Positions 2,071-10,593 of a stretch of DNA of 13,646 bases are shown here, one piece after another. Origin of the DNA: a virus (lineage: Duplodnaviria; Heunggongvirae; Uroviricota; Caudoviricetes); the IMG/VR virus record IMGVR_UViG_2724679293_000014, positions 1-13,646 of that record. One strand, 5' to 3'. The notes below the pieces were generated by a model. That model was not told the DNA's origin and made no database searches. It saw only the letters and a list, made by a program, of their open reading frames with translations. Within the stretch, counting starts at the first letter, position 1; each line of letters begins with the position of its first letter. The translations under genes and the position numbers were made by a program.

Positions 2071-2590
2071 TCAGCAACCCCGGTATCAGTTCATCCAGCG
2101 CGGCTGCTTTGTTCATGGCTTTGATGATATCCCGTTTCAGGAAATCAACATGTCGGTTTTCCAGTTCCGGAAAACGCCGCTGCACCGACAGGGGGATCCC
2201 GTCGAGAATACTGGCAATTTCACCTGCGATCCGCGACAGCACGAAAGTACAGAATGCGGTTTCCACCACTTCAGCGGAGTCTCTGGCATTTTTCAGCTCC
2301 TGTGCGTCGGCCTGCGCACGCGTAAGTCGATGGCGTTCGTACTCAATAGTCCCTGGCTGGAGATCTGTCTCGCTGGCCTGCCGCAGTTCTTCAACTTCCC
2401 GGCGCAGCTTTTCGTTCTCAATTTCAGCATCCCTTTCGGCATACCATTTTATGACGGCGGCAGAGTCATAAAGCACCTCATTACCCTTGCCACCGCCTCG
2501 CAGAACGGGCATTCCCTGTTCCTGCCAGTTCTGAATGGTACGGATACTCGCACCGAAAATGTCAGCCAGCTGCTTTTTGTTGACTTCCAT
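2045..2590 (-). CDS. nu1: Terminase small subunit (lambda Nu1 family), 181 aa
   Basis: Track ORF 2045..2590; MEVNKKQLADIFGASIRTIQNWQEQGMPVLRGGGKGNEVLYDSAAVIKWYAERD... matches lambda Nu1 (winged-helix N-terminus) and sits immediately downstream of cosB. Confidence 0.95.
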
Positions 2591-2609
2591 TGTTCATTCC
2601 ACGGACAAA

Positions 2610-2800
2610 AACAGAGAAAGGAAACGACAGAGGCCAAAAAGCCCGTTTTCAGCACCTGTCGTTTCCTTTCTTTTCAGGGGGTGTTTTAAATAAAAACATT
2701 AAGTTACGAAGAAGAAGAACGGAAACGCCTTAAACCGGAAAATTTTCATAAATAGCGAAAACCCGCGAGGTCGCCGCCCCGTAACCTGTCGGATCGCCGG
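2610..2800 (-). other. cos: cos packaging site (cosB R1/R2/R3 sites plus IHF region, cosN, cosQ side)
   Basis: Reverse complement of 2590-2790 reproduces the lambda left-end sequence as remembered (GGGCGGCGACCTCGCGGGTTTTCGCTATTTATGAAAATTTTCCGGTTTAAGGCGTTTCCGTTC...). R-site-like repeats are at 2616-2630 (gaaaggaaacgacag), 2656-2670 (ctgtcgtttcctttc, inverted relative to the first) and 2718-2730 (gaacggaaacgcc). Confidence 0.85.
2768..2779 (-). other. cosN: cosN 12-nt cohesive-end sequence (GGGCGGCGACCT on the minus strand), joined to the phage right end ...GGTTACG
   Basis: Plus strand reads aggtcgccgccc at 2768-2779 followed by cgtaacctgtcggatcgccgg, which is the reverse complement of the lambda right-end/left-end junction. 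Confidence 0.85.
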
Positions 2801-2815
2801 AAAGGACCCACGAAA

Positions 2816-2832
2816 ATGATAATAATTATCAT
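2816..2832. promoter_or_regulatory. Perfect palindrome atgataat-a-attatcat, operator-like and Fur-box-like
   Basis: 8-bp arms are exact reverse complements around one central base; composition resembles GATAAT/ATTATC Fur hexamers. Function unknown. Confidence 0.3.
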
Positions 2833-2986
2833 CTACATGAGGTTTATCACGACATGTGTGTACGCCATCAAACCACGAGAAATAATCAATTATTACGCAG
2901 GTATCGTATTAATTGATCTGCATCAAATTAGCGTAAAAGCAACTTCAGATAATACAAATCAGCAACACTGAATACGGGGCAACATT

Positions 2987-3211
2987 ATGTCATCAAAGAA
3001 CAGAACCCGCAGAACAACAACCCGCAACATCCGATTTCCAAACCAGATAATTGAACAAATTAACATCGCTCTTGACCTGAAAGGTTCAGGTAATTTTTCA
3101 GCGTGGGTTATTGAAGCCTGCAGAAGAAGATTAATTAATGAAAAATATTCTCAATTTGTACCCAACAAAGACAAACACGACCAGAGCACCTGTTCAGACA
3201 GGTTTACTTAA
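2987..3211 (+). CDS. Small ribbon-helix-helix-like DNA-binding protein, 74 aa; possibly YnfO/YlcI-like prophage protein
   Basis: Track ORF with ATG start; TRNIRFPNQIIEQINIALDLKGSGNFSAWVIEACRRRL fits a strand-helix-turn-helix (Arc/CopG-like) pattern. An intrinsic terminator follows immediately. Family assignment is from pattern only. Confidence 0.55.
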   Translation: MSSKNRTRRTTTRNIRFPNQIIEQINIALDLKGSGNFSAWVIEACRRRLINEKYSQFVPNKDKHDQSTCSDRFT

Positions 3212-3230
3212 ACGACTTATATATGACACA

Positions 3231-3259
3231 AAAAGCGACCACTAAAGTCGCTTTTTCTT
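3231..3259. terminator. Bidirectional rho-independent terminator between two convergent small genes
   Basis: aaaagcgac-cactaaa-gtcgcttttt: GC stem with an A-tract before and a T-tract after, so it is usable from both strands. Confidence 0.6.
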
Positions 3260-3292
3260 ATGGTAACAGGCAATAACTCTCTCAGATATTTT

Positions 3293-3607
3293 TTAGCATT
3301 TTTTTGACCGCGCGTTTCCGGACGTATTCTGTTCTCCTGTCCCTTTATATCGTCGGAATACCCGCCGCTCTTCAAATCCCATTCCCAACTCAGAATGTAG
3401 TCTGTTGACCGCTTGTTTTATTTCGGTCAGGTTCACCGGTGAAACCGGAGTCCGGCGCGCCTTACGCAAACACTCTGCTCGTTTCTGTGCCGCCACTTTT
3501 CTTTTCTGGTCATCACTTAGCTGTACCATCACTTTTGCCCATCGTTCAGCTGCTCTCCGGTACAGTCCTTTTTTCTCCAGACATTCTGCCACGTGATCAT
3601 GTAGCAT
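3293..3607 (-). CDS. Small basic protein, 104 aa; putative PerC/Pch-family transcriptional regulator
   Basis: Track ORF; ATG at 3607 preceded by a strong Shine-Dalgarno (GGAGGT, about 6 nt spacing). The N-terminal motif HDHVAECLEKKGLYRRAAERWAKVM resembles what I recall of PerC/Pch proteins of pathogenic E. coli prophages; not verified. Confidence 0.6.
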   Translation of the reverse strand: MLHDHVAECLEKKGLYRRAAERWAKVMVQLSDDQKRKVAAQKRAECLRKARRTPVSPVNLTEIKQAVNRLHSELGMGFEERRVFRRYKGTGEQNTSGNARSKKC

Positions 3608-3642
3608 AAGTGACCTCCGATTATCTACAGACTGCCATCCTG

Positions 3643-3670
3643 AATTTACCTTCCCTTAATGAAATAACAA
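3643..3670 (-). promoter_or_regulatory. Candidate sigma70 promoter for the PerC-like gene (TTGTTA -16 nt- TAAATT)
   Basis: Minus-strand reading TTGTTATTTCATTAAGGGAAGGTAAATTCAGG lies about 35 nt upstream of the SD/ATG, with a T/G-rich tract further upstream. Confidence 0.35.
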
Positions 3671-4072
3671 TAAAAAACAAACCACGCAAAAACAATAAAA
3701 CAACACACAAAAAAAACTAAATAACAAACAAAAATAATCACCTTGTTTTATTATTTTTTGAGGGAGCAATTACTGAACAAAAAACGCTGACTATATACTC
3801 AAAACCAAACAACTATTCTGCCAATCAGGTATCATGGCAACACACGGAATTACCGTGTTTTTGCCTTCTCTGCCCATACAATACGGGCATATACTTCATT
3901 CTCTATTGTAATATTTCTATCCATGTGCCCCACTCCATTTACCTGTAAATAATATTCAAAATATTTATCACAGAAATCGTTTTTGGCCATGAACTGAGCA
4001 CACTATAAAGTCCGGAACTGACTCTTTGTTAAATTACCTTAACGTTACCAGTAACACCTTCATAACAAAATA

Positions 4073-4540
4073 TCACGGTATACACTGGGTACGGATATAT
4101 TCCTGTGCTCCTTCCAGTTGCTTCTGCATTGCCATCAGCCGTTCTCTGAGGATGAAATAATCCCGTTCAGCGGTGTCTGCCAGTCGGGGGCCGGTTGCAT
4201 TATCCACGCCGGAGGTGCCGGTGGCTTCACGCACGGTACCGGAGCAGGTGGCGTTGATCCGCAGGCGCTTACGACCAGCGGCAACATCAGCACGCAGAGT
4301 TTCATTTTCAGCTCTCGCATCGGCTAATTCCCTCGAGTATCTGGCATCAAGTGCAGCGACATCACGCTGGCGTATCTGCATATCAGTAATTGTCGCGTTC
4401 GCCAGCTCCAGCTCACTGGCTTTTTTATCGCGCTGCTCTTTGTAGATGATGGCGTGATCACGGTAATGATTCAGCCCCAGACTAAGCGCACCACAGGCCA
4501 CCAGCAGGACAATGATAACCACGCACAGAACACGGTTCAT
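4073..4540 (-). CDS. Rz: Rz i-spanin (inner-membrane spanin), about 155 aa
   Basis: Track ORF 4073..4597 begins at a TTG; the likely true start is the ATG at 4540 ([39 protein letters not shown]...), which aligns with lambda Rz (…[45 protein letters not shown]…). Confidence 0.9.
   Translation of the reverse strand: [155 protein letters not shown]
4135..4320 (-). CDS. Rz1: Rz1 o-spanin lipoprotein embedded in the +1 frame of Rz, 61 aa
   Basis: MRELKMKLCVLMLPLVVSACGSTPPAPVPCVKPPAPPAWIMQPAPDWQTPLNGIISSSENG: lipobox VSAC, proline-rich, matching the lambda Rz1 pattern (…CVKPPPPPAWIMQPPPDWQTPLNGIISPSERG). Confidence 0.85.
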   Translation of the reverse strand: MRELKMKLCVLMLPLVVSACGSTPPAPVPCVKPPAPPAWIMQPAPDWQTPLNGIISSSENG

Positions 4541-4541
4541 A

Positions 4542-4655
4542 TCACCACCAACGGATTGCCCAGACCAGAACAGCAATGGCCACAATACGAATGGCAAAAG
4601 CTGCCGCTCTTGTTAAATCCAGACTGGCTGGCGTCTCCACTTCAATGCCTTTCAT
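4542..4655 (-). CDS. Hypothetical 37-aa single-pass membrane peptide, stop codon 2 nt before the Rz ATG (TGATATG)
   Basis: Hand translation: MKGIEVETPASLDLTRAAAFAIRIVAIAVLVWAIRWW; SD-like GAGGT about 10 nt upstream; below the track length cutoff. Speculative. Confidence 0.3.
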   Translation of the reverse strand: MKGIEVETPASLDLTRAAAFAIRIVAIAVLVWAIRWW

Positions 4656-4875: not shown

Positions 4876-5409
4876 CTATCTGTCGATGTCCCAGCACGCC
4901 AGCGCGCTCTCCTGGTCACGCCGTGAGACCTGACCGTAGCAATTATTTGAACGGATACGGCAGTCTCTGCCACCGTCCTTAATCCACCAGCGAATCGCCT
5001 CACAGGCACCTTTTCGATCGCCTGCATTAATTCGTTTATAAAACGTCGACGGGAAGCACTTACCGGGGCCAATGTTGTACGGACAGAATGACGCGATCCC
5101 CGCTTTCTGGGGTTCGGTCAGCGGCACCCGGATGTTTTTCTCCACCCATGCCAGCGCCTTGTCACGTTCGATGGCATTAACCCGGTCGCATTTTTCCTTT
5201 GACAGCTTCATGCCAGGAATAACAGGCTTACCATCCACCAGAATGGCACCACGGCAGATGGTCCAGATCCCCGCACCATCACGGTATGCCGTGGTGTGGT
5301 TACCTTCCTTTTCATCCAGAAACTGGTCGAGGATTTCAGGCGCAGAAGCACCTGCACCAATCAGCGCCAGAACGGCAGCCGACAGGCCGTATTTTATTTT
5401 TTCGTGCAT
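4876..5409 (-). CDS. R: SAR endolysin (phage lysozyme, T4-lysozyme/GH24-like, phage 21 R type), 177 aa
   Basis: N-terminal Gly/Ala-rich weakly hydrophobic segment GLSAAVLALIGAGASA (signal-arrest-release type) followed by the catalytic region EGNHTTAYRDGAGIWTICRG, analogous to phage 21 R (…[20 protein letters not shown]). Confidence 0.9.
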   Translation of the reverse strand: MHEKIKYGLSAAVLALIGAGASAPEILDQFLDEKEGNHTTAYRDGAGIWTICRGAILVDGKPVIPGMKLSKEKCDRVNAIERDKALAWVEKNIRVPLTEPQKAGIASFCPYNIGPGKCFPSTFYKRINAGDRKGACEAIRWWIKDGGRDCRIRSNNCYGQVSRRDQESALACWDIDR

Positions 5410-5419
5410 GGGGATTTAT

Positions 5420-5460
5420 CGATTTCTAATCCCTTGATATGTTAGGTATATAATCCAACA
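5420..5460 (+). promoter_or_regulatory. Candidate promoter for the plus-strand moron ORF (perfect -10 TATAAT at about 5449-5454)
   Basis: cccttgatatgttaggtatataat; AT-rich, but the -35 element is weak or mis-spaced. Confidence 0.3.
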
Positions 5461-5526
5461 CTCATGGTCGCTCTCATAAACATATCCCTTGAGACGCAGC
5501 AGATTACAACAAATGAAGCCATATAA

Positions 5527-5841
5527 ATGAACAGTAAAGAAAGTTTGCGCAGAAGATTTTTACAACTAATGACAGAAAACGTTAAATCAGAGTTACTTCT
5601 TCTGATGGCAGATAATAACGAAGCAACAAGCAGCATTCTTGCAGACCCTTACGGTAAGATCTCACATAAAACGCTGGATATTATTACCACAACATTAACA
5701 CCGCTGATGCTTCAACGGCTGAAACATAATATCAACGCATGGGTTAATGAAGAATTAAGTCCTCCCTGCTTATGGGATTCTCGTTACGCATGTCAGCAAA
5801 AAATGCGAATTTTCAACTTACTATCACCAAAGCTCAGGTAG
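5527..5841 (+). CDS. Hypothetical protein, 104 aa, convergent moron inserted between holin and endolysin
   Basis: ATG-initiated track ORF with protein-like composition (MNSKESLRRRFLQLMTENVKSELLLLMADNNEATSSILADPYGKISHKTL...) in an AT-rich island; an 8-bp-stem hairpin follows at 5847-5876. No recognisable family. Confidence 0.45.
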   Translation: MNSKESLRRRFLQLMTENVKSELLLLMADNNEATSSILADPYGKISHKTLDIITTTLTPLMLQRLKHNINAWVNEELSPPCLWDSRYACQQKMRIFNLLSPKLR

Positions 5842-6096
5842 CCATAAAATCCTGCCCTTCATGGCATACAGGATTTCAATGGAATCACAATGACCAACTC
5901 TTGCACAGCTGTATCCCTGACTCCCCGACAACTCAGATTTTCAGTATCTGCTGCTATCTAAAGAGAAAGCGCACAAATGCAAGGGTCTTTCATCACGTCC
6001 TGTTATTGATTGCCTGTGACCTTTTCTCACCTCATGGAACGTTTTTTCAGTTAGAAATATTCATTTTACAACCAGTTCGTATTGTTTATTCATCGA

Positions 6097-6303
6097 CTAC
6101 TCTCCCCGCGCCACCTTACGACGGTCCTCTCTGATTTTGAAATACAGGTTAGTCAGATACGTCAGCAGGCCAAACAGCAGACTTCCCAGCACACCTATTG
6201 CCACCCACTGGGACGGAGAGACTTTGTCCAGCAGCTGCAGTAACCAGTATCCCGTCCCCACCGCTGACGTGGTGTATGACACACCTGTTGTGATTTTTTC
6301 CAT
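6097..6303 (-). CDS. S: Pinholin (phage 21 S21-type class II holin), 68 aa
   Basis: [68 protein letters not shown] is near-identical in pattern to S21 ([68 protein letters not shown]) as recalled. Confidence 0.9.
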
Positions 6304-6558
6304 CTGATGTATGTCTCCGTCACCGCCGACAGAAAATGAAAGTAAAGAAAAACAAAAAAACCGCCAGTGTCACCCACTGACGGCCAACTCCGGGAGCCGT
6401 GATTATGGCATTCAGGCTCTGCTAAAAATGCCAGATAACATTCCGGCCTCCCCTGATTCAGGTTATAAATGACACAATATCTTGACAACACCCGTCACTG
6501 TCTGTCAGAAAATATACCGCCAGGCATAAGTATCATGTGAAATCCAACTATCCTTCTG

Positions 6559-6750: not shown

Positions 6751-8601
6751 TTATGCTGCCGGTGCATTTATCTCCAGCACCAGACTTTCTATCTCAACGC
6801 CATACGCTGCATTTTTTGTAACATCCGTCAGCGTCAGCGCATTCAGTCCCAGTGTCAGACTGTCTTTTATAACCTGGAATGCCGGGCCAGCCACTCCATT
6901 CAGTTTCGGAGTAACCGTGGCACTGCCGGCGGTGAACACCAGCTCCAGCGTCTGCCAGTCGTTACCGTAATCGCCGAACTCCCCCAGCTTCGTGTTTCCG
7001 GCTTTCCTGTGATGCATCAGATTCACTCTGCCGTCAGTGGTCTGAGTGAAGTACGACATCAGGAACGGATTACCGGTACCCGTCATCGCCACACCATCAG
7101 GAACGGGAGCATCCGTATACAGATAAATCCCCAGCCCGAACTGATTGTTGGTCAGTGCGCCTGACAGGCGGAACTTACAGGTCAGTCTGCCGCCCTGTGT
7201 CAGCAGGGTAATTGCGTCATCCACCGGATGCGTCAGGGACCAGGTTTTATTGCTCTGCTTGGCGATCTTAAATACACCACCCGACAACTGAATTCCGCCA
7301 TCCTTAATGCTCCAGCCCTGCGCAGCAGCCTCTCCGGCTGCCGGCAGCAGGGAGATTGTGCGAACGGACGTATCTGCAGACGGACCCGATGGCGTGTTGC
7401 CGCCGGGCGAGGGTTTGATTTCCGGTGCCTTACCACTGATGAAGGCTGAGGTGCGCCCGGCTGCGTTCAGAATAGCGGTTGCCAGACGATCCGGAATAAT
7501 GCTCCTGCGCGCCCATGAACTGAAATGTGTCGGGCGGTTTGATGATACCTGGTTTCCATTCGTTCTCGATGCCGCACCGTAATATCCTGATGCCGGAATA
7601 TCCGGATCTTCTGCCGGCGCGTTAGTGGCGGTATTGACACCGTTACCGTCTGTCATGAAGGACACAAAATAAACGCCCTCACTCTCCCTGTTTTTATACC
7701 CGCCGTACACGGTGTCGTACTGGGTAGCGTATGTATTTTTCCAGTAATACGTCGTGTCACCACAAATCCACGGCACATCTGCAGCACTGCCACCATGGCA
7801 CTGCGCGTTAAACACGGAGAGGTCAGCACGAAACTGTGTCAGCATGGCTGTAAACAGCGCAGGTTGCTGTGCGTGGGTGGCGGCGCTCATGTCAAACTCT
7901 CCCTGCATCCAGCACACCGCCAGCAACACATTTTTCGGGTTCTTCTGTAATGCAGCTTTAGTGCGCGCAATCAGGTCCTGATATAACGGTTTACCCACAC
8001 CCCAGCGTGCCGAATCCTGGCTGGCCCCCGTGTCCGCACTGAATGTCCCCTCCGCGCCCTGGGTGAATGCCGAACCACCACGACAGCATGGTACCAGCAG
8101 GATCCCCGCGTTATTCGGGATATACGGAAGCAGTTTTTTGGCAATATGTAAGCCCTGGCCGACACAGCCGTACTGCCCTTTGCTCAGGTCTGCCTTCGGA
8201 TGATTCAGCGTACTCATATCCTGCACATCATGCAGGCAGTGGTCGGCCGGAATAATATCGTTATATCTGCAGGCAGCCCCACCCGGCGTCACTGTACTGC
8301 GGCGCGCCAGCTGTTTAATGCGCGGATCCGGAGCATCGTATGAATCCGGCAGCGGAAGCCCTTCACCGTAAGCCATGGCATTGGACTGCCCGGCCAGTAC
8401 GATGACGTAGTACCAATCCGGCTCAGTTGCACCACTGACCACCACATCACCTTCTGCTGTAATCGCCTGCATCAGGGTATAAGGGGTTATGGCCACCGGA
8501 CTACCAAACGGCTGCCAGCCCTCTTTCAGTTTGTGTGTCAGCTTTTCCGCAAGGTCTGACGGCGACGCCGCCCTGACAACATCATAATGTTTAAATGTCA
8601 T
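6751..8601 (-). CDS. nanS-p: Prophage-encoded sialate O-acetylesterase (NanS-p-like; N-terminal DUF1737 plus SASA esterase domain), 616 aa
   Basis: Track ORF with strong SD (GGGAGGAATA-ATG); N-terminus MTFKHYDVVRAASPSDLAEKLTHKLKEGWQPFGSPV and esterase motif VIVLAGQSNAMAYGEG are typical of NanS-p proteins found between Q/stx and the lysis genes of EHEC lambdoid prophages. Confidence 0.85.
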   Translation of the reverse strand: MTFKHYDVVRAASPSDLAEKLTHKLKEGWQPFGSPVAITPYTLMQAITAEGDVVVSGATEPDWYYVIVLAGQSNAMAYGEGLPLPDSYDAPDPRIKQLARRSTVTPGGAACRYNDIIPADHCLHDVQDMSTLNHPKADLSKGQYGCVGQGLHIAKKLLPYIPNNAGILLVPCCRGGSAFTQGAEGTFSADTGASQDSARWGVGKPLYQDLIARTKAALQKNPKNVLLAVCWMQGEFDMSAATHAQQPALFTAMLTQFRADLSVFNAQCHGGSAADVPWICGDTTYYWKNTYATQYDTVYGGYKNRESEGVYFVSFMTDGNGVNTATNAPAEDPDIPASGYYGAASRTNGNQVSSNRPTHFSSWARRSIIPDRLATAILNAAGRTSAFISGKAPEIKPSPGGNTPSGPSADTSVRTISLLPAAGEAAAQGWSIKDGGIQLSGGVFKIAKQSNKTWSLTHPVDDAITLLTQGGRLTCKFRLSGALTNNQFGLGIYLYTDAPVPDGVAMTGTGNPFLMSYFTQTTDGRVNLMHHRKAGNTKLGEFGDYGNDWQTLELVFTAGSATVTPKLNGVAGPAFQVIKDSLTLGLNALTLTDVTKNAAYGVEIESLVLEINAPAA

Positions 8602-8689: not shown

Positions 8690-8784
8690 AAGAAATGAAG
8701 AAGGCCACGCAGTTGCGCAGCCTGATAAACCCTGGTTAAAATCCACACGATAACAACACAACAATATCAGTATCTCATGCTATT

Positions 8785-8846
8785 GCCCGAACCCATTCGG
8801 GCATTTTTTACCCATAAAAAATGCCCCTCCGGAGAGGGGCATTTTT
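8785..8846. terminator. Terminator cluster: plus-strand hairpin with T-run (8785-8809) and a bidirectional terminator (8816-8846)
   Basis: gcccgaacccattcgggc+atttttt; aaaaaatgcccctc-cgga-gaggggcattttt with A/T tracts on both flanks. On the minus strand the second would stop late transcription ahead of nanS-p unless antiterminated. Confidence 0.6.
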
Positions 8847-9043
8847 GCATGCACATTCTTTTTCTTGCATGGTGCCGGGTGCCTCCCGGTGAATTCAGTA
8901 TCAGCACCTGAATCCGCGATTATCACATATACCTACTTGCTGATTGCCCCTCCGCACAGGGGGATTCACCATGCAGTAGTATTTTTAATAAACAGCAAAT
9001 AAAAAAATCAAGCATTATGCAGGCTGTTTCTTTTTATCACCGG

Positions 9044-9175
9044 CTACAGCAATACCACAATGCCGCAGACCAGCACCCCATCCGCCAGCACCGACATGAT
9101 TCTGCTGGTGAAATCCACCATCACCACCAGAAACAGCAGGAGTGCAGCCACAGCCAGGCGCAGTTTTACCGTCAC
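9044..9175 (-). CDS. Hypothetical 43-aa two-helix membrane peptide, GTG start overlapping the TGA of the TerB-like frame (GTGA)
   Basis: Hand translation VTVKLRLAVAALLLFLVVMVDFTSRIMSVLADGVLVCGIVVLL. Two other frames are also open here (track ORF 9015..9302), so coding status is uncertain. Confidence 0.25.
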   Translation of the reverse strand: MTVKLRLAVAALLLFLVVMVDFTSRIMSVLADGVLVCGIVVLL

Positions 9176-9607
9176 AGGTGATTCTCCAGACGAAGACCCA
9201 GAACACCGGCAATCTCTTCCAGCACCTTGCGCTCTTCCGGCTCAATTTCGCCGTCTGCCTCCGCAATGGCCACCGCCACATCCAGCACATCTTCCGCTTC
9301 ACGCGTATCGTGTTTCACATCCTCGATCTCACGTAACGCCGCACGACGACCAGTTTTAAAGTTCGTATCCAGCTGACCGATAATGGTTGCGCTAATCGCA
9401 TTAATTTCTGACGTAAACGCGGACAGCGCAGGCTGATTACGCAGTACCTGTTCGATCTTCGCTTTCTAGGAAGCCTCACATTCACCATCTGCACAGGCCA
9501 CCAGGTAGGCAGCATTAATAACCGCCTGTGCCAGATCGCGTTTCTCAAACTTTCCTTTTTCCGGTTAACGTGACACACCAATAACTCTTGTCGAAAAAGC
9601 CAGCAAG
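9172..9607 (-). pseudogene. TerB-family (tellurite-resistance TerB-like fold) gene remnant, disrupted by an in-frame amber codon and at least one frameshift, with no usable start
   Basis: Minus-strand hand translation: ...GFFDKSYWCVTLTGK (frame 1), then a frame change within ggaaaaagg, then PEKGKFEKRDLAQAVINAAYLVACADGECEAS-TAG-KAKIEQVLRNQPALSAF...VAVAIAEADGEIEPEERKVLEEIAGVLGLRLENHL. This aligns in order with E. coli TerB as recalled (MSFFDK...FMQGTVAVCARIAVASDG...IAVAKSDGNFDDDEKSAVREIARSLGF). The amber is at plus coordinates 9466-9468. Confidence 0.55.
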
Positions 9608-9771: not shown

Positions 9772-10593
9772 CTATCTGGTCACCTTTTTCAGTTGTTGTT
9801 CTGCCCATGCTTCTTCAATATCAAACTGCACCACCAGCGTATCGTAAAAACGTTTAACTGTTTTTTTCCATGTATCAAGAGATATGGCATCGGTTACATT
9901 ACATATGGCATTAAATGCCTCCGTTGAAGGTAATCTTTCATAGCCACGACCACCACAACGCTGGCAGTCTCTGATAACAGGCATACCACGTTTTACCGAC
10001 TCTTCACGATGAATGGCAACACCGCGCCCACGACAATCTTTACAGGCGGTGGAAACCTCCCCCTTCCCTCCACACTCCGGACAGGCAACTTTTACCACCT
10101 CCCTGACTTTTTTCCATTCCTCCCAGTAAGACGGATACACGCCTTTTGTGCACTTTGCCCACACTGGCGGCTTACCATCCGGATACTGGATCTTGTTTGT
10201 AAAAACCTCGCTTTCAATAAATTTTTTTCCGTGACAACAGGGGCACTGTTTTTTGCTCGCCGCGCTACGGGCATAATCTTCAAACGCATACGAAGCCATA
10301 ATACGCATCACTGCCGGTTTTATTTCTGCCGGGAGTTTTCTTAACGCCGCCACGCGATCACACCGACTGAGTGCATATTCTGTCAGCAATTCTGTTGCCC
10401 GCTCTCTGTCATTCATACTAATGCCCATTTTCCCAAGGAACGCAGAAAACCCCATCTCAGCCCAATTCTGTGTCATGCCCTGCGCGGCCATCACATCAGT
10501 GATACTCAGCGTATCTTTCGACGTTGAGGCCGATGCATCAGTCAGGCCGAGGGATTTTGGGGAGTAGTATTTCGGTAAATCTTCCAGTTTCAT
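9772..10593 (-). CDS. Q: Late-gene antiterminator Q (lambda Q family), 273 aa, with an enlarged Cys-rich zinc-binding region
   Basis: KYYSPKS, TDVMAA and YDTLVVQFDIEE motifs match lambda Q (KFHSPKS, TDVMAA, YDALVVQCHKEE). About 65 extra residues carry four CxxC motifs (CPCC, CPEC, CKDC, CQRC). The ATG overlaps the rusA stop as ATGA. Confidence 0.9.
   Translation of the reverse strand: MKLEDLPKYYSPKSLGLTDASASTSKDTLSITDVMAAQGMTQNWAEMGFSAFLGKMGISMNDRERATELLTEYALSRCDRVAALRKLPAEIKPAVMRIMASYAFEDYARSAASKKQCPCCHGKKFIESEVFTNKIQYPDGKPPVWAKCTKGVYPSYWEEWKKVREVVKVACPECGGKGEVSTACKDCRGRGVAIHREESVKRGMPVIRDCQRCGGRGYERLPSTEAFNAICNVTDAISLDTWKKTVKRFYDTLVVQFDIEEAWAEQQLKKVTR

Follow-up and report, generated by a model that had tools for sequence, protein, structure and literature searches.

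A constrained antisense gene between the holin and endolysin genes of a lambdoid prophage, probably the orphan half of a convergent two-gene module

The IMG/VR virus record IMGVR_UViG_2724679293_000014, the 13,646 nucleotides of which were analysed as one stretch and are further designated as the window, covers the late region of a prophage that is lambdoid and resides in Escherichia coli of the Shiga-toxigenic type. The late genes of the window are on the minus strand throughout, and in its lysis cassette the genes of the holin S and the endolysin R are separated by an AT-rich interval with an open reading frame (ORF) of 104 codons on the plus strand. Comparison with related prophages indicates that this ORF is a genuine protein-coding gene and the surviving half of an ancestral convergent two-gene module, which is found in lysis regions of E. 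coli and Salmonella prophages. The best explanation of the data as a whole, with a probability of roughly 60% in our estimation, is that a constrained antisense gene, being one half of an ancestral convergent pair, is expressed in the lysogen as a binding partner or antagonist of a late-strand protein and has become an orphan in this prophage.

A preliminary description of this DNA, made from the sequence alone, had reported an AT-rich gap of about 690 bp between S and R and a 104-codon plus-strand frame antisense to the late genes, and these statements were borne out. Bounded by the stop codon of S (6097) and the start codon of R (5409), the interval measures 687 bp (5410-6096) and has a GC content of 39.2%, compared with 53.1% in S and 54.5% in R; the ORF itself (38.4%) is about 15 points lower than its flanks, as S, R, Rz, and the esterase gene are all at 53–55%. 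The ORF is the longest frame of the interval, and an ATG-initiated frame of at least 104 codons appeared in 2% of the 5000 sequences simulated from the interval by a first-order Markov model. The minus-strand frames 5442-5636 and 5824-5931 were also considered as genes and rejected, being without family matches and broken in relatives, and a search with Rfam gave no match within 5410-6096.

The protein matches the profile of PHROG 1853, annotated as "unknown function", with E = 3.5e-47 (residues 1-102 on positions 57-158 of 159), and homologues of 104–106 amino acids with 22–96% identity were recovered from prophages of E. coli and Salmonella enterica. Among these homologues no stop codons occur in the frame of the ORF, versus 4–11 in the other five frames. 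The ratio of nonsynonymous to synonymous substitution rates (dN/dS) is 0.14–0.35 against the homologues of 52–96% identity, with synonymous sites near saturation, and the alignment of 10 sequences contains the invariant motifs PYG, W72, ELS, WD, and QK, the family reaching Salmonella. The frame, the conservation of which had been left in question, is thus kept from one genus to the other. An exhaustive search of 1.84 billion cluster representatives with a hidden Markov model yielded 20 matches only, and the family as judged from these searches is narrow and confined to enterobacterial prophages. The protein has no match in Pfam (E <= 1) or NCBIfam, three members of its family and three of the partner proteins described below have none in PADLOC-DB 2.0, and a profile search of genome contigs with the family alignment gave no confirmed relative. 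The earlier remark that the protein resembles no recognisable family therefore holds for Pfam, NCBIfam, and PADLOC and fails for PHROG.

In RefSeq the gene is annotated by the Prokaryotic Genome Annotation Pipeline (PGAP) as a 90-aa "hypothetical protein" (WP_000138558.1, 5569-5841). This start omits residues 1-14, MNSKESLRRRFLQL, which are conserved and belong to the first predicted helix. Because all homologues begin near MNSKE or MNNxD, with the start at 5527 and the N-terminal helix conserved throughout, and because helix 1 of the AlphaFold2 (AF2) model spans residues 3-26, the start at 5527 is better supported and that at 5569 is probably wrong. The 159 positions of the PHROG 1853 profile were also considered as a sign of a longer protein, and this was rejected: its N-terminal part corresponds to the antisense frame of the R start, over which ORFs of 188 aa run in loci L061 and L062, so that the first 56 profile positions seem to come from over-long ORF calls.

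The genomic context was surveyed in about 100 loci with a homologue (L-numbers denote the loci compared). With few exceptions the gene belongs to the lysis cassette and runs against the late genes; the exceptional loci (L053, L095-L098) are decayed remnants of prophages or fragments in which no lysis genes can be recognised. Every lineage examined in E. coli and Salmonella, except for the near-identical lineage of the window and the remnants, has the gene arranged tail-to-tail with an intact late-strand partner gene, at spacings from a 33-bp overlap to a 20-bp gap. The module occupies either the position between S and R or that just upstream of the holin gene, and stands beside holins of three families (PF04971, PF05106, and PF16080). 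The partner is a 268-aa protein in phage 86 (orf5; a DUF1327 N-domain followed by a C-domain of about 150 aa), has 213 aa in an Stx2a phage (Stx, Shiga toxin) and 191 aa in L092, the closest intact relative, whose small protein is 78% identical to that of the window, and measures 184–185 or 260–262 aa in more distantly related prophages of E. coli and Salmonella. The C-domains of these proteins, often fused to the DUF1327 N-domain, are homologous (33–42% identity, E = 1e-18 to 1e-28) and match PHROG 1085, also annotated as "unknown function"; Pfam gave sub-threshold noise only for the partner. Among 7 pairs (21 comparisons) the identity between small proteins is correlated with that between partner C-domains (r = 0.87), which on this sequence evidence means that the two have co-diverged.

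The partner family is larger than that of the small protein, with more than 137 clusters at 90% identity, many of them annotated as "YdfR family protein". The slot between S and R was found to be highly mosaic (L099-L108, L005, and L061-L085), its occupants including short YdfR proteins of about 110 aa, long YdfR fusions of 259–333 aa, and stand-alone C-domain proteins of 185–217 aa. Partners without an adjoining ORF end with YLKVRI, most of the ORF-linked partners with YLKGRI, and those of Salmonella type with YLKRRI or YLKGRVY; because ORF-less and ORF-linked partners end differently, this suggests a recombination boundary inside the last codons of the partner gene.

The preliminary description missed both this ancestral pairing and what is left of the partner gene in the window. 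In prophages with the same S and R and no ORF, a YdfR/DUF1327 gene fills the slot and is encoded by the late strand, as had been correctly stated for ydfR of the Qin prophage, and the doubt then expressed about its equivalence with the ORF was justified: the ORF is on the opposite strand and has no match to DUF1327 (PF07041) in Pfam at E <= 1, so it is not ydfR. In the window the sequence immediately following the holin stop, ATGAATAAACAATACGAACTGGTTGTAAAATGA, encodes the first ten codons of ydfR and then a stop (6093-6061). Further downstream on the minus strand, the translation of 6011-5889 reads NQ, stop, QDVMKDPCICALSL, stop, IAADTENLSCRGVRDTAVQELVI, and aligns to NKKQGLMKRIGRCMGYLQVTAEIEALACGADRDTAVREVLL of the conserved partner C-terminal domain in relatives. 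With tblastn, residues 146-186 of the 213-aa partner of L006 matched the same segment at 39% identity (E = 2e-6, database of 310 bp). At 5862-5848 the terminal motif KGRI is still readable in a different frame, and the remnant carries a deletion of 41 bp relative to L092. Because of this ydfR stub and the stop-riddled remnant, the 255 bp between the ORF and S are a dead late-strand gene of the YdfR family and not a spacer. The true gene of the interval is consequently not to be sought on the minus strand, where pseudogene debris only is present. YdfR has been reported to bind RNase E's N-terminal (catalytic) domain, and perhaps RNA (PMC13232886); this hints at the role of the late-strand proteins of the slot and says nothing direct on the 104-aa protein.

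Despite the loss of its partner the orphan copy is still under purifying selection. Among the relatives in the orphan state (L049, L050, and L052) the divergence is 2.2–3.5% in the ORF, 5.5–8.2% in the remnant, and 7.7–11% in the 5' spacer, the values for the window against L052 being 3.5%, 8.2%, and 11%, respectively. In the latter comparison the ORF differs by 7 synonymous and 4 nonsynonymous substitutions, with dN/dS = 0.14 (Fisher p = 0.002). Of 5426 complete E. coli genomes, 628 carry the window allele, and these are for the most part O157:H7 and other Shiga toxin-producing E. coli; Stx2 phage 86, O104:H4 outbreak strains, and prophages of Salmonella have sister alleles.

The ORF together with its 5' region is a discrete insert of low GC content. 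Homology with the junctions of ydfR-type prophages lacking the ORF stops at about 5444, as determined by comparison of the R leader, and the extra 400–480 bp (approximately) that hold the ORF in the window, L092, and L005 are missing at the same junction in close relatives: in L099-L108 the partner stop is followed by 36 bp and the R start, and in L004 ydfR abuts R, with no ORF at either junction. The preliminary description had regarded the gene as an independently transcribed moron. This stands as to the absence of the extra DNA from close relatives, the base composition distinct from that of the neighbouring genes, and a -10 hexamer conserved within its clade, and fails as to the gene's own factor-independent terminator, for which nothing suitable was found. 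The interval flanking the ORF also appears to be an insertion hotspot, since several IMG/VR loci have an insertion of 2.5–3 kb or a split R near the ORF: in L040 the insertion separates the ORF from R, in L013 it separates the ORF from S, and in L007 and L069 R is interrupted.

The profile search and structure prediction that had been proposed for the 104-aa protein gave the above-described PHROG 1853 match and a confident model with no informative fold match. AF2 returned a five-helix bundle with a mean predicted local distance difference test score (pLDDT) of 84.7 and a predicted template modelling score of 0.74. The protein has no transmembrane segment (maximal 19-residue Kyte-Doolittle mean 0.66, at most 1.16 in homologues; grand average of hydropathy -0.33), and its isoelectric point varies from 4.6 to 9.3 across the family, both of which argue against a conserved DNA-binding or membrane role. 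The product is thus predicted to be a small soluble all-helical protein of the cytoplasm. A PDB sequence-profile search retrieved designed helical proteins only and no informative relative. Two further assignments were rejected: an antiholin or membrane regulator of lysis, as there is neither a transmembrane segment nor a match to a holin family, and a known anti-phage defence system, owing to the negative PADLOC-DB 2.0 result.

As to the expression signals, the perfect TATAAT noticed earlier is indeed present upstream of the ORF as the single copy of the interval, and its mere presence is not significant, since 49% of the Markov simulations hold such a hexamer on either strand. It is, however, kept in 7 of 8 clade-A loci and replaced by TACAAT in the eighth (L092), with synonymous sites saturated between the most divergent of them. 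In 64 loci of the clade of the window (64–100% protein identity) TATA[T/C]AAT is found 67–73 nt upstream of the ATG. A weak Shine-Dalgarno-like GAAG (5514-5517) precedes the ATG by about 9 nt and is represented by GAGG or GAGA in relatives. A 5' region of another type, mutually exclusive with the TATAAT type, is found in 36 loci of divergent clades 49–63 nt upstream of the ATG and comprises two inverted GC-rich arms, CCGCCAGTG and CACTGGCG, separated by 5–8 nt and followed on the ORF strand by a T-rich tail, as in L005 (~4395-4420), L006, L063, L087, L088, L110, and L112; it could be a terminator or insulator, an attenuator, or an operator. A similar hairpin adjoins the R leader in L003, which is without the ORF. 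The hairpin with an 8-bp stem that had been described downstream of the ORF exists at 5847-5876 and was rejected as a terminator: it has no T-run, its folding energy of -13.7 kcal/mol is at the level of shuffled sequences (z = -0.98), it was not reported by the terminator scan, and its conservation does not extend to L092, the closest relative with an intact module. In intact modules the ORF stop is within 20 bp of the partner gene or overlaps it.

According to these data the following course of events can be proposed. The gene would be transcribed from its own promoter, marked by the conserved -10 hexamer with no -35, independently of late transcription, and its expression in the lysogen is probable, similarly to the reverse-oriented late-region morons bor and nmpC. 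Its activity would most likely consist in protein binding rather than in DNA binding or membrane action. The long-kept convergent coupling makes the partner-type protein, or the cellular target of the partner, the leading binding candidate, and our best guess from the comparative data is the role of an antagonist or binding partner. The small protein may then be an antagonist or immunity-like factor made while the late genes are off, and on induction the antiterminated late transcription through the gene would silence it. An orphan copy may act in trans, for example, on the partners of other lambdoid prophages or of superinfecting phages.

Several results weigh against this explanation. A scan for consensus two-hexamer promoters over 5200-6500 revealed no -35/-10 pair, with no acceptable -35 at 16–19 bp; the divergent clades lack the TATAAT and have the GC hairpin upstream instead, and no credible terminator follows the ORF. 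Foldseek searches against BFVD and PDB returned nothing at E < 1, so that neither fold nor domain speaks for any specific activity, and the AF2 model of the partner (pLDDT 47) was too poor for a fold search. Literature searches with WP_000138558, ECs1097, NP_309125, and neighbouring ECs tags gave no match, and no expression data were found. Moreover, genes of the partner family are common without the small gene, often abutting R directly, and the small gene exists without the partner in the lineage of the window and in two kinds of decayed prophage remnant. Such separate occurrence weakens a strict toxin-antidote reading, and a type II toxin-antitoxin pair in particular was rejected, as the genes are convergent, each is found alone, and no toxin or antitoxin match was obtained in Pfam or PADLOC.

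The occurrence of each gene without the other makes an autonomous accessory function a serious rival. Under this explanation the gene is a lysogenic-conversion or defence moron that acts on the host or on incoming phages, and its pairing is a co-inheritance of adjacent DNA. It would account for a gene that is intact and constrained without a partner in the widespread lineage mentioned above, that persists in decayed prophage remnants, whose partner is often alone, and that bears the hallmarks of a moron (insert, low GC, and clade-conserved -10). The missing PADLOC match and the lack of a transmembrane or signal segment typical of exclusion proteins speak against it, and linkage alone explains poorly why the tail-to-tail order has been kept from E. 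coli to Salmonella, at two module positions and beside three holin families; we consider it possible and rather doubtful.

Another explanation is that the antisense transcript itself is the functional product, the protein being secondary: it would pair with the late S-to-R mRNA or interfere by convergent transcription, and in this way damp leaky holin and endolysin expression or tune lysis timing. The plus-strand unit does converge on S, where the only terminator-like site on the plus strand before the S start is a weak 5-bp stem at 6271-6285, and where the module is intact, the 3' end overlaps the partner gene or almost reaches it. However, selection acts at the amino-acid level, as is seen from the low dN/dS with saturated dS, and this disfavours a purely RNA-level role; an antisense RNA would conserve the nucleotides complementary to its target, yet synonymous sites change freely. 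In addition, RNA polymerase modified by Q is known from lambda biology to read through obstacles. This explanation is considered quite improbable. Finally, a chance ORF in the debris of a decayed ydfR-family gene, to which the decayed coding nature of the adjoining 255 bp, the weak translation signals, and the bare "hypothetical protein" of PGAP might point, is effectively refuted by the conservation data, since the frame is kept at 104–106 codons in homologues down to 22–34% identity in two genera, dN/dS stays well under 1, AF2 predicts the fold with confidence, and a frame of such length is rare in the simulations.

The reading of the ORF as the orphan of a convergent pair can be compared with several known systems. 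Reverse-oriented morons in the late region of lambdoid phages are represented by bor of lambda (borD in DLP12) and by nmpC/lc (DLP12 and PA-2). Like these, the ORF is a single accessory gene directed against the Q-dependent late operon and situated within or next to the lysis cassette, patchy among close relatives, with a base composition unlike its flanks and with a presumed promoter of its own for expression from the prophage. Unlike the predicted cytoplasmic helical protein, bor and nmpC encode envelope proteins with lysogen phenotypes, a lipoprotein and a porin, respectively. Their sites also differ, being after Rz or before S, whereas the ORF is placed between S and R or immediately upstream of S, and neither of them shares its ancestral tail-to-tail coupling to a late-strand gene. 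With YdfR/DUF1327 (essQ-ydfR-rrrQ of Qin) the ORF shares the interval between an S21-type holin and the endolysin and differs in strand and in the lack of a DUF1327 match, and nothing comparable to the binding of RNase E by YdfR is known for the 104-aa protein.

A functional analogy is given by the pore-forming colicin operons (colicins A and E1), in which a small antisense immunity gene is placed in an inducible operon next to the lysis gene. In both cases the antisense gene can be made while the operon is off and is opposed by read-through on induction. Unlike the colicin immunity proteins, which are integral membrane proteins, the 104-aa protein has no transmembrane segment and no similarity to them in sequence or fold, and we know of no toxic activity of the partner. 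A far-reaching version of the proposed course of events, which is speculative and unlikely in its entirety, is a two-gene switch of the lysis cassette: an antisense inhibitor made in lysogeny would neutralise the late partner, possibly tied to RNase E and RNA metabolism or to lysis, convergent read-through would shut the inhibitor off, and orphans would provide trans immunity against co-resident or superinfecting lambdoid phages, including Stx phages.

The sequence is already known as a hypothetical protein and as a PHROG, and reverse-oriented morons of the lambdoid late region form an established category; what appears to be undescribed is the conserved convergent coupling to the C-domain of the YdfR family, together with the orphan state, which is an incremental addition. 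The release of phage, and also of toxin in the case of Stx phages, is governed by holin and endolysin timing, and the ORF is placed in the middle of this cassette; a constrained gene tied to the YdfR-family slot is a testable handle on the uncharacterised PHROG 1853 and PHROG 1085. If the gene is a generic moron of uncertain benefit, the value is limited to better annotation.

Coordinates of the gene, its remnants, signals, and neighbours in the window
Feature	Position	Strand	Basis or remark
104-codon gene, stop included (PHROG 1853; ECs_1097 in Sakai Sp4)	5527-5841	+	ORF list, homologues, dN/dS, AF2
Leader and ribosome-binding-site region upstream of R, common to prophages without the ORF; left edge of insert	5412-5444	-	100% match to ydfR-type prophage
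Cassette-specific 5' region, putative 5' untranslated region	5445-5526	+	Clade alignment
Candidate -10 hexamer TATAAT, 72 nt upstream of ATG, no recognisable -35	5449-5454	+	Conserved within clade A
8-bp inverted repeat, arms AAATCCTG (5847-5854) and CAGGATTT (5869-5876), 14-nt loop	5847-5876	+	No T-run
Decayed partner-gene remnant (C-terminal domain of long YdfR-family proteins, PHROG 1085)	5848-6011	-	Two in-frame stops, frame change
10-codon ydfR/DUF1327 stub, MNKQYELVVK and stop, directly after holin stop	6061-6093	-	Alignment with ydfR of L003, L004
Class II (S21-type) holin S	6097-6303	-	Pfam PF04971, E = 1.3e-32; annotation
Endolysin R (phage lysozyme)	4876-5409	-	Pfam PF00959, E = 7.7e-24; annotation
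37-aa "hypothetical protein" WP_000675931.1, between R and Rz	4542-4655	-	Annotation; recurs in related prophages
Rz	4073-4540	-	Plus Rz1
SASA/NanS-type esterase	6751-8601	-	
Q antiterminator	~9772-10593	-	

Over the query the sequence of the window is 100% identical to that of strain F2_407_2_2, and many O157:H7 genomes match it at about 99.7% identity. After Rz/Rz1 the late region continues with a PerC-family gene and then the terminase. A second island of low GC content (34–43%) is located at about 2550-4050 between the gene of the small terminase subunit and Rz, and its cargo of a YlcI/YnfO-family gene (2988-3212, plus strand) and a PerC/Pch-family regulator (3294-3608, minus strand) makes it a further accessory-gene cluster. 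Rfam gave two back-to-back matches in the stretch that separates Q from the esterase gene: AgvB, an anti-GcvB small RNA (8748-8809, 96.5 bits over the full model), on the plus strand opposite to the late genes, and STnc100 (8810-9000, 146 bits) on the minus strand. Downstream of Q a TerB-family pseudogene with an internal stop (9172-9534) and a DUF3927 gene (9044-9175) were found, both on the minus strand. In prophage Sp4 of the Sakai strain (NC_002695.2, 1183365-1186375; L109) the block pchA-Rz/Rz1-R-ECs_1097-S is inverted relative to the Q and terminase genes and bordered by IS629 and ISEc8 at its two ends, so that the lysis genes there are uncoupled from the late promoter.

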